NCBI GenBank assembly: GCA_963663035.1
Contig: OY760074.1
Coordinates: 1,312,001-1,376,000 of the forward strand
Source of the DNA: Acidobacteriota bacterium
GTDB taxonomy: Bacteria; Acidobacteriota; UBA6911; RPQK01; JADFOI01
Length of the DNA: 64,000 bases
Reading direction: 5' to 3'
This document shows positions 3,803 through 63,101 of the stretch, one piece after another. The number at the start of each line of letters is the position of its first letter. Positions within the stretch are counted from its first letter, which is position 1. A program made the position numbers and the translations under genes. The notes under the pieces were generated by a model. The model worked only from the letters and a program-made list of their open reading frames with translations, searched no databases and was not told where the DNA came from.

Positions 3803-4002
3803 AGCCCGGAGAATGCAAAGGTTCTCGTCATGAAGCGGCGAAGGCGCCGGAAAACAGAGCCGTGGGCTTTAGCCCACGGGCCCGCAGGCTAAAGCCTTCG
3901 GCTCCGACTGGCGCGCAAGGGGTACCCGCTTGCGGGTCGTGCAACGCTGGCAGAGCGGATGATTTCGACGCTGCAGTAGAGAACTTATGCATTCTCCGGG
4001 CT
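3803..4002. repeat. palindromic intergenic element copy A (MITE/REPIN-like) with nested REP doublet
   Basis: Terminal IR AGCCCGGAGAATGCA/TGCATTCTCCGGGCT, core GGGGTACCCGCTTGCGGGTCG, CTGCAGTAGA motif. Confidence 0.8.
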
Positions 4003-4861
4003 AAAGTGCGATAAGTGTGGTCAGCAGGTACCCGCCCTCTTTGTCGCTTTTATCCCGGGTTTGGTGAAAGACATCTTCCAGAACCTTGGAACGACAGTAG
4101 GTGGATGCGACCACTTTAAAGAGCTGATCTGCCCTGAATCCGTTCACAGGTTCCTGCAACGATCCCTCCTGAAAAGCCAGGCGCTGCCGTACCAGCTTGG
4201 TTAACTCGTTCCTGGGAGCGTTCGCATAATCTGCCCTTACGCAAACACCCCCTTTCTTGAGGAGACTTCGCAGGTTGCGCGAGATGAGGTTATCGGTGAG
4301 CAGTGAATCGCAAAGTGTCTCTGCATCATCCTCCACCGTCTCCTCCTCGGGATCTGGTTCACGTGTCTGGGCCAGGTAATCCGCTACGGCTTGATCATCC
4401 GGGTGACGGGAATCTGTCTCCTCCTCCGGGTCCGGCAGGTCAGGATCGGGAACGATGTTGGGAAAAACAAAAAGCAGCACATCGGCCTGGCTGCGAGGCA
4501 ACGAAAAATCAGGCAGCTTGCTTTCGATCAACTGTACCCGCTGCCGCCAGTCCAGTCCCATGAACTGAAGGCGTTTACCGGCCAATTCCAGCAAGAGCGA
4601 TGACCCATCGATTCCCGTGAGCCGCGAGTTGGGAAAGCGTCGATAGAGGCGGGTGAGCATATGCCCTGCTCCACAGGCATAGTCGATGATTTTCTCTGGC
4701 GGTCGCCCGAGAAATGAACCCAGGTACTGGGAAATTTTACGGTAGGCGTAACGGTGAGCGCGGTCGCTACTCTGGCTCAGCCACCATTGTCCCAAAGTTT
4801 GATTGTAGGTGCTCGGGCCGCTGTCCAGCTCGTCGTCAAAGTCGATCTTTCTATAATCCAT
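4001..4861 (-). CDS. class I SAM-dependent methyltransferase
   Basis: IIDYACGAG motif I, GIDGS motif II. Confidence 0.8.
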   Translation of the reverse strand: MDYRKIDFDDELDSGPSTYNQTLGQWWLSQSSDRAHRYAYRKISQYLGSFLGRPPEKIIDYACGAGHMLTRLYRRFPNSRLTGIDGSSLLLELAGKRLQFMGLDWRQRVQLIESKLPDFSLPRSQADVLLFVFPNIVPDPDLPDPEEETDSRHPDDQAVADYLAQTREPDPEEETVEDDAETLCDSLLTDNLISRNLRSLLKKGGVCVRADYANAPRNELTKLVRQRLAFQEGSLQEPVNGFRADQLFKVVASTYCRSKVLEDVFHQTRDKSDKEGGYLLTTLIAL

Positions 4862-30330: not shown

Positions 30331-32880
30331 ATGAAAGACCGTTCTTTGGAACAATCCAACATCGATATCATTTCTCTCGATTTGGGAAGTTTCGTGAGCG
30401 GGGAGTTACCGGCTCAGATCATAGAGGTGGCCCGTCAAGCTCTTGACGGGAAGATCAGGGAAGGACAACTACGAGGAGGAGTCGTCTACGGATTTGGTCG
30501 AGATCTCCATATCCACGTGTCTACCTACAACGGAGACTTCCCGCCGGGTGATTCCCAGAACGGGGACCCTCTCACGGCAGTTGTCCAAACGGCCTTGGCG
30601 GCCGGCCTGGAAGCCCTGAAGGAAGCCCAGCAAATGGGCCTGGGTTCCCCTGAGGCAGAGAAAATTTCCAGCCTCCCTCCCCCAGAGCAGGCAGCAGCGC
30701 TGAACCTTCGCCGCCTGAATTACTCTTACACCGAAAGGGGTGCGGAGCCCATCTTCGTAGCCAAGGCGATCAATGGGAGCTGGGGCTTTTTTAACCGGGC
30801 CTTCTTTAACCTCTTTTTCAATCCCGACAAAGGCTCGGGACGCCGAATCGAAGGAAATGACTTTCTGGGCGTAGTTGAGTCGATCGAAGATCTGGAGAAT
30901 AACAAGCCCCAAGTGCGGACCTTCGAGTTTGGACCAGGCTATGTCAATGAAATGGTCGCTCTCATCGCCGATGCAGAGGAGTGGCGTCTGAGCCGCGTTT
31001 ATGCAGTACGGGGGAAATTCGGAGAAGGCAAGCTGTCGGATGAACCTGCTGCCGTCGTGGAGGGCAGTGTGGACCCGGTGTTCATTGGCCGATCTCAGTC
31101 CGGGCTCCCCGCTATTGGCGAATTCACACAGTCAGCGGGTGAGTTCTTCTTCGCTCCGGGTGGCGACGGCGGGCAGTACCGGGTGGGGCTCATGCCCGCT
31201 GATTTCCAAGAGGCAAGGACCATCACCTCCCTGCCCGGATCGGCGCGAGTGGTGGCCTACGCCTATCAATCCTATGACCATGGCCGCATTCCGGCGGAAG
31301 AGGATGTCGTGGATGTGTTTTCCCAAAACAGAGCGGAGACCTCCCGTGTGCAGCGGGATGCCGCAAGGTTGATCGAGCAGATGGTGAGCCATGAGAGGTT
31401 TGAACCTTACCTGAATCCCAAAGCGGCTGAGGAGTGTGCTGTCCAGGAGCTGGGCCGTCTGAAGGGTCGTTTTGAAGTCATTCCCGATGTGGACCCGCTC
31501 ATGGAAGCAGCCAACCAAAAGGCCCTCTTTACCCTGTCCGATATCAAGGCCGATAGTGGGGGCAAGGTTGGGCACACGACCCCTCCCAATCACTTCCGCG
31601 GAGTGGCTGAAGCCAGCCTGCAGGAGGCCAGAAAGCTGGGACTCATCCATGGCACCTCAGAACTCATCGAGGTTGGAGATGACGGTCACCTCCTGATGAG
31701 CCACGGGAAAGGAGCCGACAACAACGAGATCCATCTTTTCGCCTACCGCACCTTTTTCCGACAGGTCTGGGTGGCTGAGATTTTGAACTACAAGTGGTAC
31801 GGGCTGGGGCAGGACCTGGTGGGCGATGCGTCGGCCGGACGGACGACGGAAGAACTCGCCAATCTGACCGATGAGTTCATGGAGCTTCTGGAGGATACCC
31901 TGCCACCTGCGGAACTGAAGCAAATGGACCTCTTGAAAAAGGCCTACGGCGAATGGAAAAGCGGCGAGGGGCAAGGCCACAAGCCTCTTGAAGTTTTCTC
32001 CGGAAACGTGTCTGGACAGGGTCCTGGTTTTGCGGAGCTCCCCCTGATGGGCGCGGGTCAGATAGGGCTGCTGGCTATGGATAAAACGGGTCCATCCTCC
32101 TTTAATCTTCCCGTCTGGTGGAGCCTCAATCGAGCCCTGGGCGACACCACTCTGAAGACCTATTTGGAGAGAACGGGAGGCCAGGGAGTGGTCATCGAGA
32201 TCTGGGACGTGGAACACCACGAAAGGGTTTTTCTGGACGTGGAGACGGAAGCGCAGAGTATCGAAGAACTCCTGGGAGCTATTGAGAGATTTAATGTCAA
32301 GCGCATCTGGAGCAGAACGGCTGAAAAATGGGATCCAGGACGTGTTGGAGCATCTCTGGGAGAAGTCTTGCTGGCGGCCTCAACCGAAAAGCTGGCCGTC
32401 ATCACAGGCGGAGAGTATCGGGGCAAGGATGACCCCGTGCTGTTGGCCGTGGAGCCACTTGCTCAGGCGCTGAACCTCTTTATGCGGGACCGCTACTACC
32501 TGACTCAGGGAGACGGTCGGGGTTCCCACTACATGTTCCCGACACCACTGGCGTTCCAGGATGCAATTGCCACTATCAATAGCCGGGCCGTGGCCGTGGC
32601 AGCCTGCATCACAATTGACTCTTCTGGCGAGATCAGAGGTTTCCGCGACGTCTTCGCCGATCCCAGTTATGAGGCAGCGCGAGACCGCGCTTATGAGCTC
32701 AACAAGGCCATCTGGGACGCCCAAGGCGGCAACTTTATCCCGGTCGGGGTGGGAACCGCCAAGGTCGAGCAGTCCTATCCTCTGGCTCAGACTCTGAACC
32801 GAATCACTGCCGCTGATTCTGAGTTTGTTTCAAAGCGGACCCTTTCTCACGCTGCGCCTGAAGAACTCGTGGGAACGTAA
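30331..32880 (+). CDS. tandem-duplicated fructose-1,6-bisphosphate aldolase/phosphatase (FBPase class V)
   Basis: C-half: IKADSGG..GH, GDD, YGLGQDL, FSGNVSGQGPG, DKT, YRGKDDP, RGSHY; N-half is a degenerate copy (ERGAEPI, DPVFIGRSQSGLPAIGE). Confidence 0.8.
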   Translation: MKDRSLEQSNIDIISLDLGSFVSGELPAQIIEVARQALDGKIREGQLRGGVVYGFGRDLHIHVSTYNGDFPPGDSQNGDPLTAVVQTALAAGLEALKEAQQMGLGSPEAEKISSLPPPEQAAALNLRRLNYSYTERGAEPIFVAKAINGSWGFFNRAFFNLFFNPDKGSGRRIEGNDFLGVVESIEDLENNKPQVRTFEFGPGYVNEMVALIADAEEWRLSRVYAVRGKFGEGKLSDEPAAVVEGSVDPVFIGRSQSGLPAIGEFTQSAGEFFFAPGGDGGQYRVGLMPADFQEARTITSLPGSARVVAYAYQSYDHGRIPAEEDVVDVFSQNRAETSRVQRDAARLIEQMVSHERFEPYLNPKAAEECAVQELGRLKGRFEVIPDVDPLMEAANQKALFTLSDIKADSGGKVGHTTPPNHFRGVAEASLQEARKLGLIHGTSELIEVGDDGHLLMSHGKGADNNEIHLFAYRTFFRQVWVAEILNYKWYGLGQDLVGDASAGRTTEELANLTDEFMELLEDTLPPAELKQMDLLKKAYGEWKSGEGQGHKPLEVFSGNVSGQGPGFAELPLMGAGQIGLLAMDKTGPSSFNLPVWWSLNRALGDTTLKTYLERTGGQGVVIEIWDVEHHERVFLDVETEAQSIEELLGAIERFNVKRIWSRTAEKWDPGRVGASLGEVLLAASTEKLAVITGGEYRGKDDPVLLAVEPLAQALNLFMRDRYYLTQGDGRGSHYMFPTPLAFQDAIATINSRAVAVAACITIDSSGEIRGFRDVFADPSYEAARDRAYELNKAIWDAQGGNFIPVGVGTAKVEQSYPLAQTLNRITAADSEFVSKRTLSHAAPEELVGT

Positions 32881-32905
32881 CATCGTTACCCAGGAGAAGA
32901 ATCTT

Positions 32906-35653
32906 ATGAATACGGCCACTGACCTCAGCCGCTCCGACGCCCTCAAATATGTCTATCTTTTCAACCAGGTTGATGAGGTGGAAAAAAAAGTAGGTGGCGA
33001 CTGGGAGAAAGTGCGCTCTCTGCTGGGTGGTAAGGGTGCAGGCCTGGCAGATATGACCCGACTGGGCGTTTCGGTCTGCCCGGGTTTTACCGTCACCACG
33101 GAGGCGTGCACCCTCTATCTGTCTGGAAACGGGTTCCCCAAGGAAGTATGGGAGCAAGAACTGGCAGCTGTGGGGGCCATTGAGGAGGCCACCGGAAAAA
33201 AGTTTGGCGACCCCAGCAACCCGCTGCTGGTTTCCTGTCGCTCAGGTGCCAAGTTCTCCATGCCGGGAATGATGGATACTGTGCTCAACATTGGCTTGAA
33301 CGATGAGGTCGCGGAAAAGTGGGTGGAGCGAGGGGCTGACGCGCGTTTCGTCTATGACTCCTATCGAAGGTTGGTTCAAATGTTCGGCAGCGTGGTGTTG
33401 GACGTTCCCGACGAGTATTTCGAAGCCGTTATCACCGAGTGCCGAAAAGGCGCTGGAGTCACTAGCGACTCCGAACTTTCAGCTCAGAATTGGGGAGATG
33501 CAATCAAAGAGTTCAAGGAGATTGTGAAGAGCTCCACAGGAAATGACTTCCCCACTGACCCCTATCAACAACTGAAGCTGGCAACAGAAGCGGTCTTTCG
33601 GTCCTGGGACGGGAAGCGGGCCATTGCCTATCGCAAGGCAGCTGGCATTCCACATGATCTGGGTACAGCCGTCAATATCCAGACCATGGTCTTTGGCAAC
33701 ATGGGTGAGGACAGCGCCACAGGTGTGGCCATGTCACGCAACGCCTCCAACGGAGAACCCGAGCTTGAAGGGGATTTTCTGATCAACGCACAGGGGGAAG
33801 ACGTAGTGGCAGGTATTCGTCACACCCAGCCCCTGAGCGACCTCAAAAAGCAGATGCCGGAGATGTATGCCGAATTTGAGGAGATCACCCGGAAACTGGA
33901 GAAGCACTACCGCAACATGCAGGATATGGAGTTCACCATTGAAAATCAAAAATTGTGGATTCTGCAGACGCGGGATGGAAAGCGCACCGCCCAGGCCGAG
34001 GTGCGTATCGCGGTGGACATGGTCGAGGAAGGACTCATCAGCAGGAAAGAGGCGGTAGGGCGGGTCCAGCCGGCCCAGGTAGACATCTTCATGCACCCGC
34101 AGTTTGACGCCGCTACCCGTCAAAAGGGCCAGCTCATCGCGCGGGGTCTGAACGTCTCCCCGGGAGCAGCAGTGGGTGTCGTCGCCTTTGACGCCGATAC
34201 AGCCGAAGATTGGGCTGCGAACAAGGGAAAAGATGTCATAATGGTTCGGCCCGAGACCAAACCCGACGATGTGCATGGCATGCTGGCCTCCAAAGGCATT
34301 CTCACCAGCCGAGGCGGCCGTACCAGCCACGCTGCGCTGGTTGCGCGGCAGTTCGGCACACCGGCCGTGGTGGGTGTCAGCGAGTTGGAGATCGATCTTG
34401 ACGCTCGCCAAATGCGCATCGGCGATGAACTCGTGGTGAAAGAGGGAGAGTGGATTTCACTGGACGGGGGCTCAGGCGAAGTTTTCCTGGACAAATTACC
34501 CACCGTTGTTCCCGACTTCAGCAATCCTTATCTCCTGAAAATTCTCGAATGGGCGGATGAAATTCGCACCCTCCAGGTCTGGACCAACGCCGATTACCCT
34601 GGTGACGCCGAGCGAGCTCGTGAATACGGTGCCCAGGGTATCGGTTTGTGTCGAACCGAGCACATGTTCTTCGAGACCAGCCGCCTGCCCATTGTTCAGC
34701 GCATGATCATGGCCACGGACCCGGCCGAGAGACAGGAAGCTATTGACAAGCTGCTGCCGATGCAGCGAGAGGATTTCGAAGGCCTGTTCAAGGCCATGGA
34801 CGGAGCTCCGGTGGTTATCCGACTGCTGGATCCGCCGCTGCACGAATTTTTGCCCTCCTATGAGGAGTTGGTTCAAGACCTGGCGGAGTTGAAGGCTCAG
34901 GTCAAGTACCTGAAGAGCGGCAGCGAGAAGGACAATGCCCTCTCTGAAATTCAGAGTAAATCCGCCTACCTGGAGAGGGTGCAGGCGCTCCGAGAAATGA
35001 ATCCGATGCTGGGTACACGCGGAGTCCGCCTGGGCATCCTCATTCCCGAGCTGACCAAAATGCAGGTTCGAGCCATCTTTGAAGCTGCTTGCAAATGTTC
35101 CCAGGCGGGGATCAAGGTCCAACCGGAAGTCATGATTCCCCTGACCTCTCACGTAAACGAACTGCGGGTCCAGCAAACGGGACTGGAAAGCGTGGCCAAA
35201 GAGGTCATGGCAGAACAAGGCGCCCAAATCCAATACAAGTTCGGCACCATGATCGAGATCCCGCGAGCCGCACTCACGGCCGATGAGATGGCCGAGGTCG
35301 CTGAGTTTTTCTCCTTTGGTACCAATGACCTGACTCAGACTGTTTTTGGCATCTCCCGTGATGATGCCGAGTCCGGCTTCCTGGTGCACTACATCCAGGA
35401 AGGGATTCTGCCCGAGAACCCATTTGCCACCCTGGATGTCGGGGGTGTCGGAAAGTTAATGGAGATGGCCGTCCAGCTGGGTCGAAAGATCAAGCCTGAA
35501 CTGGAGATTGGTATCTGCGGTGAGCATGGTGGAGATCCGGCAAGCATCGCCTTGTGCCACCGGCTTGGTTTTAATTACGTCTCCTGTTCGCCCTTTCGGG
35601 TCCCCATTGCCCGCCTGGCAGCCGCCCACGCCGCACTTGCGGACAAAGAGTGA
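32906..35653 (+). CDS. ppdK: pyruvate phosphate dikinase
   Basis: LLGGKGAGL, SMPGMMDT, GGRTSHAA (phospho-His), GLCRTEHMF, SFGTNDLTQ, GICGEHGG; AGGAG before ATG 32906. Confidence 0.97.
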   Translation: MNTATDLSRSDALKYVYLFNQVDEVEKKVGGDWEKVRSLLGGKGAGLADMTRLGVSVCPGFTVTTEACTLYLSGNGFPKEVWEQELAAVGAIEEATGKKFGDPSNPLLVSCRSGAKFSMPGMMDTVLNIGLNDEVAEKWVERGADARFVYDSYRRLVQMFGSVVLDVPDEYFEAVITECRKGAGVTSDSELSAQNWGDAIKEFKEIVKSSTGNDFPTDPYQQLKLATEAVFRSWDGKRAIAYRKAAGIPHDLGTAVNIQTMVFGNMGEDSATGVAMSRNASNGEPELEGDFLINAQGEDVVAGIRHTQPLSDLKKQMPEMYAEFEEITRKLEKHYRNMQDMEFTIENQKLWILQTRDGKRTAQAEVRIAVDMVEEGLISRKEAVGRVQPAQVDIFMHPQFDAATRQKGQLIARGLNVSPGAAVGVVAFDADTAEDWAANKGKDVIMVRPETKPDDVHGMLASKGILTSRGGRTSHAALVARQFGTPAVVGVSELEIDLDARQMRIGDELVVKEGEWISLDGGSGEVFLDKLPTVVPDFSNPYLLKILEWADEIRTLQVWTNADYPGDAERAREYGAQGIGLCRTEHMFFETSRLPIVQRMIMATDPAERQEAIDKLLPMQREDFEGLFKAMDGAPVVIRLLDPPLHEFLPSYEELVQDLAELKAQVKYLKSGSEKDNALSEIQSKSAYLERVQALREMNPMLGTRGVRLGILIPELTKMQVRAIFEAACKCSQAGIKVQPEVMIPLTSHVNELRVQQTGLESVAKEVMAEQGAQIQYKFGTMIEIPRAALTADEMAEVAEFFSFGTNDLTQTVFGISRDDAESGFLVHYIQEGILPENPFATLDVGGVGKLMEMAVQLGRKIKPELEIGICGEHGGDPASIALCHRLGFNYVSCSPFRVPIARLAAAHAALADKE

Positions 35654-50617: not shown

Positions 50618-51997
50618 GAGGTTCCGTCAATAAGTGTGTAAATAGACATCAGGCGGCTTTCTCCTGGGTGACTGGGTTGACTGGAACTCCATTGACATAT
50701 TGGGCTCCTTGGTAGACATCCTTCATCAAGTGGGGAGCCTTCAAACGGCGAAATCTCTTCTCAGCGACCAGCAGCATCTTCCAGATGACAGCCCGTGCGT
50801 TGGCCACTTTCTTGAACCTTCGAGCAGCATCGGTTCGCAGTCGCAGAGCAGAGAAGGGAGACTCCACTGGGTTGGTAGTCCGCAGATGTTGCCACTGCTG
50901 TTTGGGATAGTTGTAAAACGTCACCATCCGCTCCCAGTCCTGGTCGATCAGATCAGCCGCTGCCTCCAGGCCTCTCTTGCTACACCAATGTTGGAATCGT
51001 CCTTTGACTCGCTCGGCTTCCTGCCGTGTTTCTGCATAAGGGATCTGCCGCAACATCAACAAGGCCGCTTTGTGCCGACTCTTGGGGATCTTGGCCAGCA
51101 AGTTGACGATGCGATGATTCCAGCATCTCTGCTCGTCGGCTTCTGGGAACACGTTGCGCAACGCTCCCCAGATCCCCAGATGCCCGTCAGCGATCACCAG
51201 ACGGGGTGGGTTCATCCCCCGCTCTTTGAGATCCCGCAGCACTTCGGACCAGCTCTGGGTCGATTCTCGATAACCACTACTGACGGACACCACCACTTTA
51301 GTGCCATCACTTAAAGCGGCGATCACTACCAGAATCACGGCCTTCTCCTTCTCCAGCCCTGCTTTGATGTACACGCCGTCCGCCCACAAATACACGACTT
51401 CCAGATCATCCAGCCGACGGCTCTGCCAGGCCTCCATTTCTCCCTGCCACTTCTGTTTCAACCGGGCTACGGTGCTGGGGGACAGCGGCGCTTCTTCCCC
51501 TAAAAGCCCTCTCAAGGCCAGATCGAAATCCCCCTCGGCCAGACCATGTAAATAGAGTTCTGGAATCAAGTCTCGTACCTCTCGCGTTCGCTTGGCAAAC
51601 AGCGGCAAGACCCGGCTCTCAAAACGCTCTTCCAGATCCCGCACTCGGGGACGCCGCAGCTTGATCGTTCCGCAACTCATCGTCAGTCGCCGCTCCTTGC
51701 CGTAGCCGTTGCGATAGCCACCGGAGGCGTCCACTTCTCGGCGACGCTCATTCTTTCTTCGTCCCAGCAGCTGTGTCACTTCATCCTCCAGCAGTTCCTG
51801 TACGTAAAACTGGATCTGCTCTCGCACCCACTCTTCCAGCTGTTCAAAGCAGACTCTTGACTCCACACTGTGATCAATGTTCTTCTTGCTCATGGCGGTG
51901 TGACTCCTTCCTTTCGGGCTCTTCCGCCCGGGTTTTTATTTTCACCCGGAAGGATAATCACCGCCTGTGCTATTTACACACCTTTTGAGGGTAGCTC
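50618..51997 (-). mobile_element. IS256-family insertion sequence, 1380 bp, 28-bp imperfect TIRs, 9-bp TSD GGATCTTCG
   Basis: TIRs GAGGTTCCGTCAATAAGTGTGTAAATAG / CTATTTACACACCTTTTGAGGGTAGCTC; TSD at 50609-50617 and 51998-52006. Confidence 0.95.
50649..51893 (-). CDS. IS256 family transposase
   Basis: YRNGY, PRVR, LWADG, IADG, QRCWNH, RTTNPVES. Confidence 0.96.
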   Translation of the reverse strand: MSKKNIDHSVESRVCFEQLEEWVREQIQFYVQELLEDEVTQLLGRRKNERRREVDASGGYRNGYGKERRLTMSCGTIKLRRPRVRDLEERFESRVLPLFAKRTREVRDLIPELYLHGLAEGDFDLALRGLLGEEAPLSPSTVARLKQKWQGEMEAWQSRRLDDLEVVYLWADGVYIKAGLEKEKAVILVVIAALSDGTKVVVSVSSGYRESTQSWSEVLRDLKERGMNPPRLVIADGHLGIWGALRNVFPEADEQRCWNHRIVNLLAKIPKSRHKAALLMLRQIPYAETRQEAERVKGRFQHWCSKRGLEAAADLIDQDWERMVTFYNYPKQQWQHLRTTNPVESPFSALRLRTDAARRFKKVANARAVIWKMLLVAEKRFRRLKAPHLMKDVYQGAQYVNGVPVNPVTQEKAA

Positions 51998-52954: not shown

Positions 52955-54670
52955 TTAGAAGGCTCCGGAGGCCTCGTAAACGATCTTTCCTCCGACCACG
53001 GTCATCAGCACTGGCATAGTACCGATTTCCTCCTCCGGCCAGGTCATGTAATCGCCTCCGAGTACCACCAGGTCGCCCAGTTTACCCGGCTCAATCGAGC
53101 CCAGGATATTCTGCTCGCCACTGTAGCGGGCCGCCCACAGCGTATACATATAGAGAGCCTCCTGCCGGGAAACGCGCTCCGCAGGATTCCAGATTCGTCC
53201 GTCTTCCGATTTTCGAGTGATGAATCTCTGGATCGAATCCAGTCCTCCTCCGATCTCGATGCTGGGCCTGATCCCGGCATCGATTGCTGACTTGACTGGA
53301 GACATGCCATAGACGGCGTCGGGGCCGTACATGGTAACCAGGCCCGCATTATTCCCGGAAAAAGCCCCGGCATCCATCGACGTATTCATATCCATTTCTT
53401 TGATCAAGTCAAAGTGGCGTTCCGTCAGCCCCTTCTGATGGTCGAATCCAAAGTGGCGCCCAACCAGAGATTTTTCCTGATGGGCTTCGGCGAAAACGTC
53501 CAGCAGCAGATCGTTGCTGGCATCTCCTTCGCTGTGAAGACCCATGATGCTCCAACCATAGCGATTGGCCAGGATGATGGCTCGTCGATCACTGGTGGCC
53601 ACGTTTCCGGTGGACTCCCACTTGTTCCACCCGTAAGGACCATAGGGGTCACCTTCAGCCATCTGGATTTTCGCGAAGGTGAACAACCCTGAACCCGTAC
53701 CTGTGGACCCGTCTACCACCTGCACGGTCGCTCCGATAATCTTCATCCAGTCGTCTCCAAAGTCTGTCAGGTTTCCGATCCGCTTCAGGAACGCTTCGGG
53801 TCGTGCCTGGGAGCGCAGGAACTCATGGGCCAGTCTGACGCGCACAGGAAGTTCCCCCGCCTTCCACAGCTCCAGCAGGATGGAGATGGTCTCACCTTGT
53901 CCTCTTCCCATGAGGGTGGTGATCCCGCGCGGCCCGTGGCGTTTCAGGGCTTCACGTTCTCTGGCGACTGCCCCCTCAAAATCGTCTTGCCCGGGCTTGA
54001 ACTCATAGATCACTATTCCGGCCGGACCACCTCTTATCTGACCCGTGTAGTTTCCCTGCTCATCTTTGAGAATGCCATCCAATCCCTGCGCCACTGGAAG
54101 TAGTTTCTTCAGCATCTGGCTGTTGATGATGACCTGATTGTTGGGACAGCTGATGGAGATCGGGTTGTTGGGAGAAGCGGCATCCAACTCCGCCAGCGTC
54201 ACCTCTATCGTCAGGTATTTGTTGCTGGGTCCCGCCATGTAGATTTCCTCGCCCGGAGGAAGCTCAGCCACCGCAGCCTTGATCTCTTCCAGCCCGCTGG
54301 CCACGTCTTCGAACTGCAACCTAACAGTTCCACTCTTTGAAGCATTGCCGATGTAGCCGTGCTGGTGGGTGGCGATCAGCCCCGGGATGATACCTCGACC
54401 CTCAAGATCGACTCTTCTCGTCTGTGGACCCGCCATGGCCTGGATGGCCTGGCTTTCCCCCACGGCCAGAAACTTCCCGTCTCGGATCGCTACCGCTTCT
54501 CGTATGGAAAAATCCTCGTCGGCGGTAATGACCTGGCCGTTGTAAAATATAATGTCCGCGTACTCGATGACCTCCGACGGCAGGCTCTGGGCGGCCAGAA
54601 ATGCGCTGCAGATCCCCAGCATCAAGCAGGCCAGAAAACCCATTTGAAACTTCTTAATCCACTGGTTCAT
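52955..54670 (-). CDS. secreted amidohydrolase 3 paralog 1
   Basis: PGLIATHQH, HSEGD, FDHQ, GSIEPGKLGDLVVL. Confidence 0.88.
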   Translation of the reverse strand: MNQWIKKFQMGFLACLMLGICSAFLAAQSLPSEVIEYADIIFYNGQVITADEDFSIREAVAIRDGKFLAVGESQAIQAMAGPQTRRVDLEGRGIIPGLIATHQHGYIGNASKSGTVRLQFEDVASGLEEIKAAVAELPPGEEIYMAGPSNKYLTIEVTLAELDAASPNNPISISCPNNQVIINSQMLKKLLPVAQGLDGILKDEQGNYTGQIRGGPAGIVIYEFKPGQDDFEGAVAREREALKRHGPRGITTLMGRGQGETISILLELWKAGELPVRVRLAHEFLRSQARPEAFLKRIGNLTDFGDDWMKIIGATVQVVDGSTGTGSGLFTFAKIQMAEGDPYGPYGWNKWESTGNVATSDRRAIILANRYGWSIMGLHSEGDASNDLLLDVFAEAHQEKSLVGRHFGFDHQKGLTERHFDLIKEMDMNTSMDAGAFSGNNAGLVTMYGPDAVYGMSPVKSAIDAGIRPSIEIGGGLDSIQRFITRKSEDGRIWNPAERVSRQEALYMYTLWAARYSGEQNILGSIEPGKLGDLVVLGGDYMTWPEEEIGTMPVLMTVVGGKIVYEASGAF

Positions 54671-55013: not shown

Positions 55014-56729
55014 TTAGAAGGCTCCGGAGGCCTCGTAAACGATCTTTCCTCCGACCACGGTCATATGCACTGGCAAAGCGCTGAGTTCATCCTCCGGCCA
55101 GGTCATATAATCGGCTCCGAGTACCACCACGTCGCCCAGTTTACCCACCTCAATCGAGCCCAGGATATCCTGCTCGCCACTGTAGCGGGCCGACCACTGC
55201 GTGTACATATAGAGCGCCTCCTGCTTGGAGACCCGCTCGTCCGCATTCCAGACTCGGCCGTCATCCGTCTTTCGAGTGATGAAGGCCTGGAGCGATTCCA
55301 TTCCATCTCCGATCTCGATGCTGGGCTTGATCCCGGCATCGATAGCTGACTTGACTGGAGACATGTTATATACGGCGTCTGGGCCGTACATGTGAACGAT
55401 GCTCGAATTATCCCCGGAGAAAGGACTTGCATACATAATCGGAGTTATCCCCATCTCCTTGATCAGGTCAAAGTGGCGTTCCCGCAGCCCTGCCTGATGG
55501 TCGAATCCAAAGTGGCGGCCAGCCAGCGATCTTTCCTGATGGGCTTCGGAGAAAGCGTCCAGCAGCACATCGTCGCTGGCATCTCCCGCGCTGTGAAGGC
55601 CCAGGATGCTCCAACCATAGCGGTTGGCCAGGATGATGTTTCGCCGATCACTGGTGGCGATGTCTTCGGTTGCCGCCCATTTGTTCCATCCGTAAGGACC
55701 ATAGGCGTCACCTTCAGCCAGGTTGAGTTTCGCGAAGGTTTGCAAATTTGCACCCGGACCTCCGGACCCGTCTACCACCTGCACGGTAGCTCCGATGATC
55801 TTCAGCCAATCGTCTCCAAAGTCTGTCAGGTTTCCGACCCGCTTCAGGTACGCTTCGGGGCGTGGCTGAGAGCGCAGCATCTCGTGGGCCAGTCTGATGC
55901 GCACAGGAAGTGCCTTCTCCTTCCAGATCTCCCGCAGGATGGTGACAGTCTGACCTTGCCCTCTTCCCATCACGGTGGTGATCCCGCGCGGGCCCCAGCG
56001 CTTCAGTTGTTCCCTTTCTCTGTCGATCGCGGCCTCAAAATCTTCGTGCCAGGGCATGAACTCATAGAGCACGATTCCGGCCGGACCACCTCTTAGCTGA
56101 CCCGTGTAGTTTCCCTGCTCATCCTTGAGAATGCCAAACATCCCCTGCGCCTCTGGAAGGAGTCTGTTCAGCATCAGGCTGTTGACAACAACCTGATTGT
56201 TGGGACAGGTGACCACCAGCGGGTTGTTTGGGGAAGCGGCATCCAGCTGTGCCAGCGTCACATCTATGGTCATGGCGTGGTTGCTGGGTCCCCCCGACCA
56301 GATCTCCTCACCCGGAGCATATTTGGCCACCAGAGCCTTGATTTCCTCCAGACCGCTGGCCACGTCCTTGAACTGCAGCCTCTCGGTCCCGCTCTTTGAA
56401 GAATTGCCCACGTAGCCGTGTTGGTGGGTGGCAATCAGCCCGGGGATGAGGCTTCGACCGTCAAGATCCACTTTTCTCGTCTGTGGACCCGCCATGGCCT
56501 CGATGGCCCGGCTGTCCCCAACGGCCAGAAACTTTCCGTCCCGGATGGCTACAGCTTCTCGTATGGAAAAACCCTCGTCGACGGTAAGGACCTTGCCGTT
56601 GTAAAACACGATGTCCGCATAGTGGATGACCTCCGACGGCAGGCTCTGTGCGACCAGAAATCCGCTACAGATCCCCAGCATCAAGCAGGCCAGAACACCC
56701 ATTTGAAACTTCTTAATCCACTGGTTCAT
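55014..56729 (-). CDS. secreted amidohydrolase 3 paralog 2
   Basis: Same motifs; AGGAGG before ATG 56729. Confidence 0.88.
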   Translation of the reverse strand: MNQWIKKFQMGVLACLMLGICSGFLVAQSLPSEVIHYADIVFYNGKVLTVDEGFSIREAVAIRDGKFLAVGDSRAIEAMAGPQTRKVDLDGRSLIPGLIATHQHGYVGNSSKSGTERLQFKDVASGLEEIKALVAKYAPGEEIWSGGPSNHAMTIDVTLAQLDAASPNNPLVVTCPNNQVVVNSLMLNRLLPEAQGMFGILKDEQGNYTGQLRGGPAGIVLYEFMPWHEDFEAAIDREREQLKRWGPRGITTVMGRGQGQTVTILREIWKEKALPVRIRLAHEMLRSQPRPEAYLKRVGNLTDFGDDWLKIIGATVQVVDGSGGPGANLQTFAKLNLAEGDAYGPYGWNKWAATEDIATSDRRNIILANRYGWSILGLHSAGDASDDVLLDAFSEAHQERSLAGRHFGFDHQAGLRERHFDLIKEMGITPIMYASPFSGDNSSIVHMYGPDAVYNMSPVKSAIDAGIKPSIEIGDGMESLQAFITRKTDDGRVWNADERVSKQEALYMYTQWSARYSGEQDILGSIEVGKLGDVVVLGADYMTWPEDELSALPVHMTVVGGKIVYEASGAF

Positions 56730-56844
56730 TGGAAACCTCCTGTTTTTTGTTAACTGTGATTCCCGGCAAATTCTGAGCACTCCGGGCGAAGAAAACACCC
56801 TCGTTGACTACGCCTCCCGAGTTGTCCCCGAATTCACGAAGATT

Positions 56845-58560
56845 TTAAAAGGCTCCGGAGGCCTCGTAAACGATCTTTCCTCCGACCACGGTCATATGCA
56901 CGGGCAAAGCGCTGAGTTCATCCTCCGGCCAGGTCATATAATCGGCTCCGAGTACCACCACGTCGCCCAGTTTACCCACCTCAATCGAGCCCAGGATATC
57001 CTGCTCGCCACTGTAGCGGGCCGACCACAGCGTGTACATATGGAGCGCCTCCTGCTTGGAGACCCGCTCGTCCGCATTCCAGACTCGGCCGTCATCCGAC
57101 TTTCGAGTGATGAAGGCCTGGAGCGATTCCATGCCTCCGCCGATCTCGATGCTGGGCTTGATCCCGGCATCGATAGCTGACTTGACTGGAGACATGTTAT
57201 ATACGGCGTCGGGGCCGTACATGTGAACCATCCACGCATTATCCCCGGCGAAAGCAGTGGAATACATAACCGGAGTTATGCCCATTTCCTTGATCATTTC
57301 AAAGTGGCGTTCCCGCAGCCCGGCCTGATGGTCGAATCCAAAGTGGCGGCCAGCCAGTGGTCTTTCCTCATTGGCTTCGGCAAAAGCCTCCAGCAGTATA
57401 TCGTCGCTGGCATCTCCCGCGCTGTGAAGGCCCAGGATGCTCCAACCGTAGCGGTTGGCCAGGATGATGTTTCGCCGATCACTGGTGGCGATGTCTCCGG
57501 TTGCCGCCCATTTGTTCCATCCGTAAGGACCATAGGCGTCACCTTCAGCCAGGTTGATTTTCGCGAAGGTTTGCAAATTCGAACCCGTACCTCCGGACCC
57601 GTCTACCACCTGCACGGTGGCTCCGATGATCTTCAGCCAATCGTCTCCAAAGTCTGTCAGGTTTCCGACCCGCTTCAGGTAAGCCTCGGGGCGTGGCTGA
57701 GAGCGCAGCATCTCGTGGGCCAGTCTGATGCGCACAGGAAGTGCCTTCTCTTTCCAGATCTCCCGCAGGATGGTGATGGTCTGACCTTGCCCTCTTCCCA
57801 TCACGGTGGTGATCCCGCGCGGGCCCCAGCGCTTCAGTTGTTCCCTTTCTCTGGCGACTGCGTCCTCAAAATCTGGGTGCCAGGGCATGAACTCATAGAG
57901 CACGATTCCGGCCGGACCACCTCTTAGCTGACCCGTGTAGTTGCCCTGCTCATCCTTGAGAATGCCAAACATCCCCTGCGCCTCTGGAAGGAGTCTGTTC
58001 AGCATCAGGCTGTTGACCACAACCTGATTGTTGGGACAGGTGACCACCAGCGGGTTGTTGGGGGAAGCGGCATCCAGCTGTGCCAGCGTCACATCTATGG
58101 TCATGGCGTGGTTGCTGGGTCCCCCCGACCAGATCTCCTCACCCGGAGCATATTTGGCCACCAGAGCCTTGATTTCCTCCAGACCGCTGGCCACGTCCTT
58201 GAACTGCAGCCTCTCGGTCCCGCTCTTTGAAGAATTGCCCACGTAGCCGTGTTGGTGGGTGGCAATCAGCCCGGGGATGAGGCTTCGACCCTCAAGATCC
58301 ACTTTTCTCGTCTGTGGACCTGCCATGGCTTCGATGGCCTGGCTGTCCCCAACGGCCAGAAACTTCCCGTCCCGGATCGCTACAGCTTCCCGTATGGAAA
58401 AACCCTCGTCGGCGGTAAGGACCTTGCCGTTGTAAAAGACGATGTCCGCATAGTGGATGACCTCCGACGGCAGGCTCTGGGCGGCCAGAAATGCGCTACA
58501 CATCCCCACCATCAAGCAGGCCAGAACACCCATTTCAAACTTCTTAAGCCACTGGTTCAT
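56845..58560 (-). CDS. secreted amidohydrolase 3 paralog 3
   Basis: Same motifs; near-identical to paralog 2. Confidence 0.88.
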   Translation of the reverse strand: MNQWLKKFEMGVLACLMVGMCSAFLAAQSLPSEVIHYADIVFYNGKVLTADEGFSIREAVAIRDGKFLAVGDSQAIEAMAGPQTRKVDLEGRSLIPGLIATHQHGYVGNSSKSGTERLQFKDVASGLEEIKALVAKYAPGEEIWSGGPSNHAMTIDVTLAQLDAASPNNPLVVTCPNNQVVVNSLMLNRLLPEAQGMFGILKDEQGNYTGQLRGGPAGIVLYEFMPWHPDFEDAVAREREQLKRWGPRGITTVMGRGQGQTITILREIWKEKALPVRIRLAHEMLRSQPRPEAYLKRVGNLTDFGDDWLKIIGATVQVVDGSGGTGSNLQTFAKINLAEGDAYGPYGWNKWAATGDIATSDRRNIILANRYGWSILGLHSAGDASDDILLEAFAEANEERPLAGRHFGFDHQAGLRERHFEMIKEMGITPVMYSTAFAGDNAWMVHMYGPDAVYNMSPVKSAIDAGIKPSIEIGGGMESLQAFITRKSDDGRVWNADERVSKQEALHMYTLWSARYSGEQDILGSIEVGKLGDVVVLGADYMTWPEDELSALPVHMTVVGGKIVYEASGAF

Positions 58561-59075: not shown

Positions 59076-59759
59076 ATGACTGGGATGCAACTTAGAAAAG
59101 CGCGGAAAGAAAAAGGCTGGAGCCAGCAACAGGCTTCTGCTCGTTTGGGTGTGTCTCAACCGTACCTGTCCTTGCTGGAAAGGAGGCAAAGACGCTTAAC
59201 TCCCCGCCTAGTAGCTCGTGCAACAGGCGTTTTCGATTTGCCTCTCACTTCATTGCCACTGAAGCCGGTTGGCTCGCAGACTCACACACTACAACAGGTG
59301 GCAGAAGAATTGTCTGCTTTGGGGTATCCAGGTTTTGCATACATGCGAACGAGAAAGAGACGTAACCCGGCTGAGGCTTTGGTTGCGGCGCTCAAACAAG
59401 AGAATTTAGAAGCTCGGCTCGCGGAGGCACTTCCTTGGGTTCTTCTCAATTACCCGAACCTTGCTTGGAAATGGCTTCTGGACCAAGCTCGACTACACAA
59501 TCTTCAGAATCGACTGGGCTTCTTGGTTTCCATGGCCCGAACGAAGCTAGAGGAAAAGGGCGAATTGCAGAGCCGTCGTTATAGAACTTTGTGCTACGCC
59601 GAAGAACAGCTGGAAAGCAGCCGTCTTGCACAGGAAGATGCTTTTGGTGAAGCGGCTCTGACTGCTCGGGAACGCGAATGGCTGCGTGAACACCGCCCTG
59701 CATTGGCAGCACGTTGGAATTTACTCTCAGATCTAAGTCCGGAACACCTTCCCTACTGA
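59076..59759 (+). CDS. XRE-family HTH protein with helical C-terminal domain (antitoxin-like)
   Basis: LRKARKEKGWSQQQASARLGVSQPYLSLLE; NPAE..EALPW..LQNRLGFL. Confidence 0.75.
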   Translation: MTGMQLRKARKEKGWSQQQASARLGVSQPYLSLLERRQRRLTPRLVARATGVFDLPLTSLPLKPVGSQTHTLQQVAEELSALGYPGFAYMRTRKRRNPAEALVAALKQENLEARLAEALPWVLLNYPNLAWKWLLDQARLHNLQNRLGFLVSMARTKLEEKGELQSRRYRTLCYAEEQLESSRLAQEDAFGEAALTAREREWLREHRPALAARWNLLSDLSPEHLPY

Positions 59760-61687
59760 CGGAACCTCGATTGAGCGGCCACTTCCTCATCTGAAAAATC
59801 GTAGGCAGGTCCAATCCGTGCCATGCCAAACTCATTCGCCAGGGATTCCTGCAACTGGATAATCTCGCCGCCCACCAGCGTCATGGGTACACGAATTTTC
59901 AAAATGTCATCGACCGGAACGGTAAAATAGTCACGGTCCAGGACCACCAGATCTGCGTATTTGCCCACTTCCAGCGTGCCCAGTTCGTCTTCTTTGAGCA
60001 CGTATTCGGATGCCCAGGATGTCCACATCTTCAGGGCATGCACTCGGTCAATTCGCTCGTCGGGTTGGTAGACGACCCCACCTTCTCTGCGAGTCACCGA
60101 TTGCCACTGCATGTTAAACGGTGGCGTACCCCCATGATGCTGGCCGACCAGCTTCACACCCGAATCAATCCAGGTCTTAAAGGGGATAATGAAAGGCTCT
60201 ATCTGGGGGCCATAATCGGCGATCCAGTCTGCTGCCTCGCGGAGATAGTTGATGCCGCAGCTCAGGATGATTCCATAGTCTGTCAGCCTCTGAATGATGT
60301 CCGGTTGCTGTCCGATCAGATTGCAGTGCTCACCGGTCAGCTTCATGTCACGCACCTGCTGCATCGACCAGCCGTTGACTTCGCGGGCCCGATCGATCAT
60401 TTGAGTAAAGGCTCGCACACTTTGGCTGCCGCAGATGTGCACTCCCGCCAGACGCCAGCCGGCGGCAGCGGCATTTTCAAGTGTATCCCAGGGCAGTTCC
60501 CCCGGTACCGGGCAGACCTCTCGAGACTTGATATTGGGTGGGGCGATGGTATCGGGTCCCGTGCACGATTCCGGGTATATCGAATCCCAGCGCTCTGAGG
60601 CCACTCCGTCAATCCACAGGTGATCGTCTCCAATTCCCTGCAGCACCCCGGTCCGCCGATAAATCTGACGGGTCTGCTGGGGATCGGTGGGCATGCGGTG
60701 GATTTCATAGTGAGCTGCGAAACGAATCGGCAGTTGGTCCAATCCGGCAAGAGTGGCATATCCACTCATGATCTTGGGGAACTGAACGCGGCTTGAAAAA
60801 GTGGTGATTCCTTTGGTGGTGGCCTCTTCCGAAATGATCCTGATGGCTTCGGCCAGAGTGGCCAGAGGCAGTTTTTCCAGAAACAGCTCCCAGGTGATCA
60901 CGGACATCTCCTGGCTGCCCACCCATCCGATTTCGGCAATGTCCTCTCCAATCACGTCCCCGTGCATGGTCTCGTGGATGGATTCGGAGTATCCGGGCAG
61001 AAACTCATTCATAATCTCCAGCGCCTGGGAGTTGACCCAGCCCCGCGGGCCGGGTCGTATCAGAACGGGATTATCAGGAGTCCACAAGTCCAGCGTCCTG
61101 CGATTGGTGATGCGTCGCGTAAACCCCCAGAAGCTCGCCTCGCCTGGCGCTTCAGGATTACCCTGAATACTGAGCACCAGCCATTCGCCCGGGTCCACCT
61201 CCTGGACCGCATCCTGGAGTGTCTCCCGCATGATGGCCTGTGTTTTCTCCAGGTCCCGATCTGCCTGCATGGAGAGAAAGCTTACGCCCTCGGGAGGATA
61301 CTTGAAGCCTAACCGGTCCAGATGTCGGGTTGCACCTCCGTACATGTGGCTGTGTGTCTCGATTATGCCGGGAATCAGAGTCCTCCCATTCAGATCAAAA
61401 GTCCGAGTGTCGGGTCCCGCCACCGTCCGGACCTGCTGGTTGGTCCCCAGCTTCATGATCTTCTCGCCTTTGACGGCTATGGCCTGATAGGTGTTCCCCA
61501 CACTGGTGGAACGGGACTTATCGTCCATGCTCACCACCTTGCCGTTGACAAAGATCGTGTCTGCATATCCCGATTGGGCTACTTCTGGAGCCAACTGACC
61601 GAAGGCACTGGTGAGCTGGAAAAGAAGCAGCAGGGCCAGAGCTGGCCAGGCAGCTGGATATTTACTGATCAATTGATAGTCCCTCAT
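59753..61687 (-). CDS. secreted amidohydrolase 3 family protein
   Basis: NGKVVSMD, PGIIETHSH, HICGS, GEHC, GTLEVGKYADLVVLD; GGAGG before ATG 61687. Confidence 0.88.
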   Translation of the reverse strand: MRDYQLISKYPAAWPALALLLLFQLTSAFGQLAPEVAQSGYADTIFVNGKVVSMDDKSRSTSVGNTYQAIAVKGEKIMKLGTNQQVRTVAGPDTRTFDLNGRTLIPGIIETHSHMYGGATRHLDRLGFKYPPEGVSFLSMQADRDLEKTQAIMRETLQDAVQEVDPGEWLVLSIQGNPEAPGEASFWGFTRRITNRRTLDLWTPDNPVLIRPGPRGWVNSQALEIMNEFLPGYSESIHETMHGDVIGEDIAEIGWVGSQEMSVITWELFLEKLPLATLAEAIRIISEEATTKGITTFSSRVQFPKIMSGYATLAGLDQLPIRFAAHYEIHRMPTDPQQTRQIYRRTGVLQGIGDDHLWIDGVASERWDSIYPESCTGPDTIAPPNIKSREVCPVPGELPWDTLENAAAAGWRLAGVHICGSQSVRAFTQMIDRAREVNGWSMQQVRDMKLTGEHCNLIGQQPDIIQRLTDYGIILSCGINYLREAADWIADYGPQIEPFIIPFKTWIDSGVKLVGQHHGGTPPFNMQWQSVTRREGGVVYQPDERIDRVHALKMWTSWASEYVLKEDELGTLEVGKYADLVVLDRDYFTVPVDDILKIRVPMTLVGGEIIQLQESLANEFGMARIGPAYDFSDEEVAAQSRFRQ

Positions 61688-61828
61688 GGTTCCTCCCTTG
61701 GTCTTGATGCGGTTGAAAAGGCGATACCTAATCTCAAACTCCTGACTGCAACTGTGCTCAATGGTACGCCTGGCTGTGCTGAAAGGCAATGGAAAAGAGC
61801 TTCCTATTCCCATGTGCACCCGGGATCT

Positions 61829-62560
61829 TTATCCATGGCTGGGCGGGTGTTCTTTCCAATATTCCATGGCCCGCTCCCAGTCGGCCACAGCCTTGGGCCC
61901 GTTGGTATGGAGGTGGGCCACAAATTGATCCCACATGCGAGGCCGAAATCCCAGGAACTCGCAATAATTGGGGCCTACTTTTCGGTTAGCCTGGCGCATC
62001 TCCCTGCGTTTTATCTGATACTCCAAGATAATTCTTAAGGTGTCGCCATCCGTCCAGTCCGCTTTGAACCAGATAAAACGTCTGCCCTTCCCTATGAGAT
62101 ACAGCATGTCGGGAAGGGCTCCATAGGCCCGGTGTGCAGCTCCCTCCAGACTGTCAACGAGGATGGGTCGCTGGATAGCAAATTGAGACTGAAAAGCTCT
62201 CGCTTGATCCAGCTTCTGCTCGAATCGGGTGTGATGGGGTCGGAGTTCTCCCGGATGTGCCTCCCGGGTATAGACAAACACGAATTCGAATCCTTTGTCC
62301 CGGTAATCGCTGGCAAGTTTCTCCATAGCCGGCCCGGCTATGCCACAAAACGGTCAGGTTAAGCTTCCAAATTCAAGAACGACATTGGAATGGACCGTAA
62401 GATCTGACAATCTCACTTTCTTCCCATCCTCAAGACGCGTGGCCTCAAAGTCCGGTGCTTCTGTACCAACCTTCAGCGTCTGCTGAAATCTTGAAAAATC
62501 TCTCTCTTCTTCCTCACCGGGAAGATAACCCTCGTAGTTGTATGGAAGATCCTGAGTCAT
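61829..62560 (-). CDS. deiodinase-like thioredoxin-fold selenoprotein (243 aa, Sec69, UPFC)
   Basis: ORFs 62354..62560 and 61829..62326 are in frame across a single TGA: APDF...VLEFGSLT-U-PFCGIAGPAMEKL...FVFVYTREAHPGE. Confidence 0.88.
62324..62342 (-). promoter_or_regulatory. putative bacterial SECIS hairpin
   Basis: CAUAGCC(G)-GGC-(C)GGCUAUG stem with G-containing loop starting 11 nt after the UGA. Confidence 0.75.
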
Positions 62561-63101
62561 GATACTGATGAGATTTTACGCTCGGAGCCGCGGAGAAGGC
62601 AATGTGAGATACTTATATCCGCTGATGATTCTTCCATCCAAGCGGATTTCTTGGCTTCTTTGCACCTGGCTTTTCCTGTTGCCATATTGCCGGAGTATGA
62701 AAGAAGCGACGATCGAGAACCTGCAAACCGAAAGCACACTGACTGATTATCAGATGATCTCCCTGACAGGTCGAAGAGATGGTGATCGTCTGCCCGTCCG
62801 ACTCGTTTTTGAAGCCTCCTCTTCGAACTTACGGATGGACTTGCTCTTTCGCATTGGTGTTCCGACCCGTCTGGAGTCTGGTCAGTATCATTGGGAACGG
62901 CAGGATGAAGTTCTGGAGGGACTGGTTCGAGCCAGCTCTGTGACCTTCCTGGGAGGACAGTCCGAGAATCCCAATCTGGGTGGCGTCTTCCAACTTTTCT
63001 CAGCCAGCGGTGTTCCCAGCTATAAAGTCACACTCCCAACCAGCGAGGTGACACGGTCCCGCACACGACCCGGCACTCCATTGGTGGTTCCGTCGCACTG
63101 A
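62559..63101 (+). CDS. hypothetical exported protein (start probably about 62625)
   Basis: Hydrophobic N-region with Cys; beta-rich; FLGGQ. Confidence 0.55.
   Translation: MILMRFYARSRGEGNVRYLYPLMILPSKRISWLLCTWLFLLPYCRSMKEATIENLQTESTLTDYQMISLTGRRDGDRLPVRLVFEASSSNLRMDLLFRIGVPTRLESGQYHWERQDEVLEGLVRASSVTFLGGQSENPNLGGVFQLFSASGVPSYKVTLPTSEVTRSRTRPGTPLVVPSH

Follow-up and report, generated by a model that had tools for sequence, protein, structure and literature searches.

A UxxC deiodinase-like selenoprotein gene with a predicted SECIS hairpin in an Acidobacteriota genome

We analyzed a 64,000-nucleotide stretch of DNA from an Acidobacteriota bacterium (positions 1,312,001 to 1,376,000 of contig OY760074.1, assembly GCA_963663035.1; hereafter the window, to whose positions all coordinates refer) and focused on a candidate gene for a deiodinase-like selenoprotein near its end. 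The minus strand from 62560 to 61829 forms one frame of 243 codons, with an ATG at 62560, a terminal TAA at 61831..61829, and, as the sole interruption, a TGA at codon 69 (62356..62354). Translation of the TGA as selenocysteine (Sec, U) yields 243 residues, including EFGSLT-U-PFCGIAGPAMEK and, later, FVYTREAHPGE. Under translation table 11, the frame is split into an open reading frame (ORF) of 68 amino acids (62354..62560) and another of 165 amino acids starting at Met79 (61829..62326). An earlier reading of the DNA letters only (the sequence-only reading) had described two ORFs joined in frame by one TGA at 62354-62356, giving FGSLT-U-PFC and then YTREAHP, and the frame and translation agree with this description. 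The N terminus of the protein, MTQDLPYNYEGYLPGEEEERDF, read directly from the translation, is acidic and lacks a hydrophobic stretch and, hence, a transmembrane anchor. We noted two promoter-like sites between 61500 and 62900, compared with 0.9 ± 1.0 in shuffled sequences, which, as a consensus match, is weak evidence only.

Of 1058 relatives obtained by searching 5.8 billion proteins, we looked at the 120 best. Among these, 110 were entries of ~165 amino acids that start just after the TGA (60-70% query coverage) and only 10 were full-length, and one entry of the representative library (P0161) stops exactly at residue 68. Gene callers split the deiodinase-like selenoprotein family at the UGA and the family is systematically mis-called, so that the window gene and most of its relatives stand in public databases as two fragments. 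Three entries (P0152, P0197, and P0237, of 1003, 843, and 1066 amino acids, respectively) matched the query in four to five separate stretches and appear to consist of several deiodinase-like or thioredoxin-like domains in tandem.

Scanning GTDB genomes, one per species, gave at least 592 confirmed relatives among 601 pattern matches, and the best 80 loci were analyzed. The codon homologous to codon 69 is TGA in 79 of the 80, always within U-P-[YF]-C; the sole locus with TGT (Cys) is L079, from a thaumarchaeal metagenome-assembled genome (MAG). In 78 of the 80 loci, the frame matched by tblastn contains just one TGA, which occupies the homologous codon and precedes P-[YF]-C. At locus L038 (a Chloroflexia MAG, 4001-4700), the match frame is lost ~47 codons in and the motif with TGA is found in another frame; this locus retains the Sec codon and the hairpin described below, with its N-terminal part in a frame other than that of the active-site motif, and the change of frame is a frameshift or an assembly error. 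The 79 TGA-bearing loci, which together with the window gene are referred to as the 80 Sec-form genes, span Acidobacteriota, Chloroflexota, Actinomycetota, Rokubacteria, Planctomycetota, and Marinimicrobia and also include Alpha-, Gamma-, and Deltaproteobacteria and Myxococcota (Myxococcales); overall, the family was found in at least eight prokaryotic phyla. The closest loci (L001, L002, and L003) are from Acidobacteriota and are 75-92% identical to the window gene, with 92% for the MAG locus L001, and their tblastn matches cover residues 1-243 with the frame unchanged.

We then considered what stands in the Sec column of continuous homologues. From 103 database homologues of 195-330 amino acids, two of which lack the region, 101 were scored, and Cys was found in 86; the remaining 15 have Ala (five), Leu, Trp, Ser, or Gly (two each), Asp (one), or Thr (one). 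The alignment of homologues that the sequence-only reading had suggested as a check thus returned TGA in nearly all loci and Cys in most full-length proteins. The entries with Trp in this column are P0026 and P0164, those with Leu are P0024 and P0025, and three of these four have Cys at +3; the Trp entries may be gene calls made under a table in which TGA is Trp. When the window gene was compared with L001, L002, and L003, the synonymous/nonsynonymous codon differences were 10/7, 19/8, and 23/17 upstream of the TGA and 29/12, 32/20, and 59/42 downstream, and the nine codons between the TGA and Met79 had four synonymous differences and one nonsynonymous difference in total. Both sides of the TGA therefore appear to evolve as coding sequence. 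TGA terminates 14 of the 35 Pfam-positive ORFs in the window, which indicates that it has not been reassigned genome-wide. Together, the conserved TGA, the Cys homologues, and the synonymous bias exclude a strain-specific nonsense mutation and two separate genes. The accepted signatures of Sec are the alternation of Cys and UGA at a redox-active position and a hairpin that fits the model of the bacterial Sec insertion sequence (bSECIS). Overall, these comparisons strongly imply that UGA69 is a sense codon read by programmed Sec insertion.

The sequence-only reading had placed a hairpin 11 nt after the UGA and taken it for a SECIS element. As predicted, the hairpin begins at this distance from the TGA: its inverted-repeat arms (62334-62342 and 62324-62332) are 9 nt each, 100% complementary, and separated by 1 nt, and they fold into an 8-bp stem with the loop GGC at -11.7 kcal/mol (31 nt). 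When the folding energies of 30-nt segments were averaged over the 80 Sec-form genes, the minimum, -10.8 to -11.7 kcal/mol, was reached by segments whose start lies 3-12 nt from the first TGA base, compared with -2.7 to -9.4 kcal/mol (typically approximately -6 kcal/mol) at other positions between -180 and +480. Within 42 nt downstream of the TGA, the best uninterrupted stem reached 7 bp or more in 54 of the 80 genes, compared with 12.5% of 2079 control segments from the same genes; it starts 9-12 nt after the TGA in 71 genes and has 32 distinct 5' stem sequences. The apical loops are GGC (30 genes), GGTC (19 genes), CGTGC (12 genes), GTC (6 genes), and others (13 genes). A second perfect 9-nt inverted repeat in the gene, with an 18-nt spacer, lies at 62084-62119, ~235 nt downstream of the UGA; the averaged profile of the 80 genes has no folding peak there.

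Covariation was counted over the seven pairs of the commonest register in an ungapped 48-column alignment of the 80 sequences and compared with 500 shuffles. In this register, 77.9% of the cells are paired, compared with 63.1% in the shuffles, and the covariation score is 0.404, compared with 0.175; none of the 500 shuffles reached either value, and slid registers scored 0.187 at most. Pair 14-30, for instance, is CG in 36, GC in 28, and GU in 7 genes, and pair 16-28 is CG in 31, AU in 21, and GC in 19. Because sequences of common descent can outscore shuffles without any structure, the slid registers and a Cys form served as further controls; the single Cys-form control locus, L079, gave only -0.9 to -3.3 kcal/mol at the hairpin position. 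In the passages of a 2026 review that set out the bSECIS model (PMC13188914), the apical loop has 3-9 nt, carries a G at its first or second position, as a rule with G or U after it, and lies 16-37 nt from the UGA; the upper stem spans 4-16 bp, and the hairpin folds at -7.5 kcal/mol or below. The window hairpin passes all four constraints (loop GGC, stem 8 bp, spacing 19 nt, and -10.3 kcal/mol for the bare hairpin). The spacing is 16-19 nt in 71 of the 80 genes, and all four constraints are passed by 64 of the 80 genes, compared with 243 of 2560 control positions (9.5%), under a strict no-mismatch stem. No Rfam match was obtained in the window at the gathering threshold. The covarying hairpin, common to genes from many lineages, bears out the proposed SECIS element, and the comparison strongly implies that it has the shape and position of one.

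We next turned to the protein. The translation matches the Pfam family T4_deiodinase (PF00837) with 47.8 bits (cut-off 27) and Redoxin with 42.7 bits. From 89 aligned full-length family members, 87 match T4_deiodinase (E ≤ 0.001) and 81 match AhpC-TSA. No NCBIfam model reached its cut-off, the best being NF038285, "deiodinase family protein", with 74 bits compared with the 250 required. When a family profile was searched against all sequences of the Protein Data Bank (PDB), the best matches were mouse Dio3 (4tr3, E 2.2e-25) and mouse Dio2 (9h48, E 7.2e-20), followed by ResA (E 4.3e-13), and the single window sequence also found Dio3 first (E 8.7e-10). The relationship to deiodinases seen in the sequence-only reading is thus upheld, with mouse Dio3 and Dio2 as the closest solved relatives.

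The AlphaFold (AF2) model of the whole read-through chain, computed from the family alignment, has a pLDDT of 95.2 and a pTM of 0.92. It begins with an N-terminal helix and a β-hairpin (39-42/48-50), which are followed by β1 (59-65), α1 (70-87), β2 (91-97), a loop (98-112), an insert helix (113-126) with a strand (133-135), and the rest of a thioredoxin fold; two extra helices (210-218 and 222-237) form a C-terminal extension of ~55 residues that was covered by no Foldseek match. In the model, Sec-69 stands at the start of α1 and Cys-72 one turn further on. The best Foldseek match of the model is Dio3 (4tr3, E 1.4e-11, target TM 0.73), ahead of ResA/TlpA-like oxidoreductases and then Dio2.

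Within the active-site motif U-P-[YF]-C, the 80 Sec-form genes keep U in 80, Pro in 79, Tyr or Phe at +2 in 80, and Cys at +3 in 80, and Glu-100, Ala-101, His-102, and Pro-103 are likewise kept in all 80. Passages of a paper on the Dio2 structure (PMC11592359) propose a proton relay of Ser, Thr, Tyr, Glu, His, and His around the Sec. In alignments with Dio3, Ser-66, Thr-68, Tyr-97, Glu-100, His-102, and His-110 of the window protein align with these six residues, and they are conserved in 80, 77, 80, 80, 80, and 70 of the Sec-form genes, respectively. Invariant in all 80 are Ser-66, Sec-69, Cys-72, Tyr-97, Glu-100, His-102, Lys-116, Asp-136, His-143, and Trp-169, and the subfamily of the window gene has, in addition, a conserved N-terminal Y-N-Y. 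The second Cys at +3, present in 80 of 80 Sec forms, is found in only 9 of the 86 Cys-form homologues, most of which have Phe, Tyr, or Thr there, indicating that the +3 Cys is associated with Sec use in this family. The Sec forms thus appear, from the alignments, to be a distinct UxxC subgroup within a wider Cys-type family. Most Cys forms read T-C-P-x-[FYT], which is nearer to the animal T-U-P-x-F.

The features of the locus and of the rest of the window are collected in Table 1. Directly downstream of the selenoprotein gene, and in the same orientation, lies the last member of a tandem array of four Amidohydro_3 genes. The listed GTG start of this last gene, at 61819, is probably too far upstream; its real start, with a signal peptide, appears to be an internal Met (MRDYQLISKYPAAWPALALLLLF...) that precedes a hydrophobic stretch. 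The divergent upstream neighbours are an unmatched ORF and a PD40-repeat protein; the PD40 neighbour is common to the window and L001, and L002 and L003 have other downstream genes. At 79 loci, we took from each flank the longest ORF lying within 1 kb, which gave 148 flanking ORFs. Repeats were seen among close relatives only, namely an ABC ATPase in Chloroflexia and a luciferase-like monooxygenase with a BD-FAE esterase in Dehalococcoidia, and redox-related neighbours are scattered (catalase in L042, Pyr_redox_2 in L056 and L072, G6PD in L051 and L078, and OsmC in L074). Elsewhere in the window, the FBPase_3 matches of the 849-amino acid ORF fall in three stretches, mostly in its C-terminal part, with a long N-terminal part unmatched, and the listed start of the 942-amino acid dikinase-type ORF overlaps the 849-amino acid ORF by 56 nt. 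The window holds 89 ORF pairs joined by one TGA, 11 of which stood out by having either a Cys close to the TGA or a hairpin in a suitable position; apart from the selenoprotein gene, those of the 11 that we looked at are probably other frames or the antisense strand of genes with Pfam matches.

Table 1. Features of the selenoprotein locus and of the remainder of the window
Feature	Position	Strand	Basis
Complete coding sequence, deiodinase-like selenoprotein, 243 codons + TAA (predicted)	61829..62560	-	Frame, translation, tblastn, codon differences, AF2 model
Sec codon UGA, codon 69 (predicted)	62354..62356	-	TGA in 79/80 related loci; Cys in 86/101 full-length homologues
U-P-F-C redox motif, Sec69 to Cys72	62345..62356	-	Start of modelled helix 70-87
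SECIS hairpin (predicted), 8-bp stem, apical loop GGC, UGA-to-loop 19 nt	62324..62342	-	bSECIS model, comparison
E-A-H-P-G-E motif, codons 100-105	62246..62263	-	Glu100/His102 aligned with deiodinase relay Glu/His (4tr3)
Promoter-like hexamers TTGCCT, 18 nt, TAAAAT; end 13 nt before ATG	62573..62602	-	Consensus match, weak
Four tandem Amidohydro_3 (PF07969) paralogues	52955-54670, 55014-56798, 56845-58560, 59753-61819	-	Pfam
Mutator-family transposase (PF00872, E 1e-59), just before the amidohydrolase array	50649-51893	-	Pfam
849-aa ORF with FBPase_3 matches, then 942-aa pyruvate phosphate dikinase-type ORF	30331-35653	+	Pfam

The best explanation of the locus is that it is one gene for a soluble 243-residue thioredoxin-fold selenoenzyme of the bacterial "deiodinase-like" family, and the product is very probably a genuine Sec-containing redox enzyme of that family. 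The proposal that a single Sec protein of this length is split by gene callers is in keeping both with the TGA at 79 of 80 loci and with the predominance of C-terminal ORFs among the database entries. A number of observations weigh against this reading. At the protein level, AhpC-TSA scores the same as T4_deiodinase in Pfam (47.8 bits), and it is the search of the family profile against the PDB that separates the two; ResA/TlpA-type structures also superpose on the model with a higher target-normalized TM score (0.85-0.87), over fewer columns, and in the model, the fold alone does not appear to single out deiodinase chemistry. At the RNA level, the window hairpin taken by itself is marginal (31 nt, z = -1.86, with 9 of 200 shuffles as good), and a fold over 71 nt is not exceptional (z = -0.42, 70 of 200 shuffles as good), so that the significance of the hairpin comes from the comparison with the 79 related loci. 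The strict contiguous-stem bSECIS test is failed by 16 of the 80 genes. Further, RNAalifold returned no consensus structure from the ungapped 80-sequence alignment, because the hairpin occupies three registers in different clades (in the actinobacterial and acidobacterial clades, the stem is shifted 3 and 4 columns onward); following this result, the register-free per-sequence tests and the fixed-register pair count described above were used. At the level of the genome, no Pfam match to selA, selB, or selD was found among the 52 ORFs of the window, and ARAGORN detected no tRNA gene, and hence no tRNA-Sec, in the same 64 kb, so that the Sec trait of the source genome is deduced rather than seen. 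Finally, no neighbour family is conserved across phyla among the 148 flanking ORFs, and, because none recurs beyond close relatives, gene context was rejected as evidence for a substrate.

Bacterial Sec insertion proceeds by binding of SelB, with GTP and Sec-tRNA(Sec), to the loop of the SECIS element. By analogy, the SelB-GTP-Sec-tRNA(Sec) complex would bind the apical loop of the window hairpin and deliver Sec to a ribosome positioned on UGA69. Judging from the fold and the motif, Sec-69 would be a selenolate at the N terminus of helix α1 that attacks an electrophilic atom of the substrate, which could be the oxygen of a peroxide, the sulfur of a disulfide or sulfenate, or a halogen. Cys-72 would then resolve the oxidized selenium by forming an intramolecular selenenylsulfide, a thioredoxin-type reductant would regenerate the enzyme, and the hydrogen-bond network of Ser-66, Thr-68, Tyr-97, Glu-100, His-102, and His-110 would give or take the proton. 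General reduction of the peroxide or thiol-disulfide type is the more likely putative activity, ahead of dehalogenation.

Two alternatives concern the UGA itself. It would be consistent with the table-11 reading, with the 110 of 120 best matches that are C-terminal ORFs of ~165 amino acids and with the entry that ends at residue 68, if the TGA were a true stop, either between a gene for a 68-amino acid peptide and one of 165 amino acids or within a gene killed by a nonsense mutation, the hairpin being incidental or regulatory. We consider this exceedingly improbable, as 79 of 80 loci from different phyla have the same in-frame TGA, continuous homologues with Cys extend over both halves, conservation at the protein level runs through the nine codons from the TGA to the downstream ATG, and a stop would bisect the active-site motif and helix α1, yet the joined chain is modelled with a pLDDT of 95.2. 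Alternatively, the UGA could be read through without Sec, for instance by near-cognate insertion of Trp or Cys stimulated by the hairpin. The alternation of Cys and UGA at a redox-active position, a hairpin with the spacing, loop size, and loop G of the bSECIS model, and the publication of the family as selenoproteins make this very improbable, despite the window having no visible Sec machinery and two homologues (P0026 and P0164) having Trp in the Sec column.

A further alternative accepts the selenoprotein and concerns its chemistry. The UxxC deiodinase-like selenoproteins might be cofactor-free, selenium-based reductive dehalogenases of natural halogenated phenolics, in which the selenolate takes the halogen (formally X+) from the halogenated phenolic and the resulting Se-X or Se-OH intermediate is resolved by Cys-72 rather than by a distal Cys. 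In its favour, both the profile search and the Foldseek E-values rank deiodinases first among solved relatives, the window protein has all six residues proposed for the deiodinase proton relay, which are conserved among the Sec-form genes, and members of the family come from soil and marine lineages, Dehalococcoidia MAGs among them. The retained relay is compatible with dehalogenation; the shortened loop-D, with 9 residues fewer than in Dio3 and without the Trp found there after EAHPSDG, and the absence of a recurrent halogen-related neighbour among the 148 flanking ORFs argue against it. Further, U-x-x-C at the start of helix α1 is a general thioredoxin-fold redox motif, and the describers of the family, in the passages of their paper that bear on function, expected a redox role other than deiodination (PMC1088965). 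On balance, we regard dehalogenation as unlikely. If it were true, it would represent a bacterial dehalogenation route independent of the corrinoid RdhA enzymes and the evolutionary source of animal thyroid-hormone deiodination. Under the favoured reading of a Sec-containing redox enzyme, the gene adds a member to a family that has been known for 20 years, and it leaves current knowledge unchanged; its presence implies that this acidobacterial lineage uses Sec, and the 80-gene comparative set together with the high-confidence model provides concrete residues to mutate. Some Acidobacteria are Sec users.

Proteins of the TlpA/ResA and AhpC/TSA type are normally Cys proteins and are often exported. 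They share with the window protein the fold, the central helix-strand insert, and a redox motif at the start of helix α1, but they lie far lower in the search with the family profile (E 4.3e-13 for ResA compared with 2.2e-25 for Dio3) and lack EAHPGE, and, unlike those that are exported, the window protein has no signal peptide.

The animal deiodinases Dio1-3 share more with the window protein, namely a thioredoxin/peroxiredoxin-like fold with an N-terminal β-hairpin module, FGSxT-U-P, Y...EAHP, and the six relay residues. Deiodinases are membrane enzymes (PMC11592359), and the window protein lacks their N-terminal membrane anchor. Passages of the same paper, on the Dio2 structure, describe a deiodinase-specific insertion with an extended omega loop-D that borders the thyronine substrate site. 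In the window protein, the insert helix and strand are present in the model (113-126 and 133-135), but a 9-residue deletion relative to Dio3 directly after EAHPGE shortens loop-D and removes the GW...SPY stretch with its Trp. In agreement with the sequence-only reading, according to which animal deiodinases lack a Cys at U+3, Dio3 has Phe where the window protein has Cys; the latter has no Cys at U-2. The window protein also differs from Dio1-3 by its extra C-terminal helical extension, and its SECIS element would be of the bacterial type, within the coding region, whereas that of animal deiodinases lies in the 3'UTR. Thyronine is not expected to be its substrate, in line with passages of the first description of the bacterial family (PMC1088965).

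That description, from the 2005 survey of the Sargasso Sea by Zhang, Fomenko, and Gladyshev (PMC1088965), reports, in its relevant passages, Sec- and Cys-containing bacterial "deiodinase-like proteins" of Pfam00837, with four Sec sequences and bacterial SECIS elements in their genes, and suggests a redox function other than thyroid-hormone deiodination. Passages of the later Global Ocean Sampling (GOS) survey (PMC2398784) count 22 Sec sequences and 21 Cys homologues, and reviews from 2022 (PMC9312934) and 2026 (PMC13188914) list, in the entries concerned, "Deiodinase-like protein, pfam00837, UxxC"; the 2026 review remarks, in the passage at hand, that such families came almost all from bioinformatics and are of largely unknown function. 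Within open-access literature and bioRxiv, no biochemical study of a bacterial deiodinase-like member turned up. The window protein and the published family share similarity to PF00837, a single Sec, UxxC, Cys-containing homologues, and a bacterial SECIS element directly after the UGA with a G in a small apical loop, and from the shared Pfam family and motif we infer that they probably belong to the same subfamily. The passages through which the papers were compared give no defining difference, the N-terminal Y-N-Y and the C-terminal extension being known from the subfamily of the window gene. The sequence-only reading had called the selenoprotein "hidden", which does not hold for a family and a UxxC motif that were already in print; the window gene is an ordinary member of a selenoprotein family published since 2005 and not a discovery.

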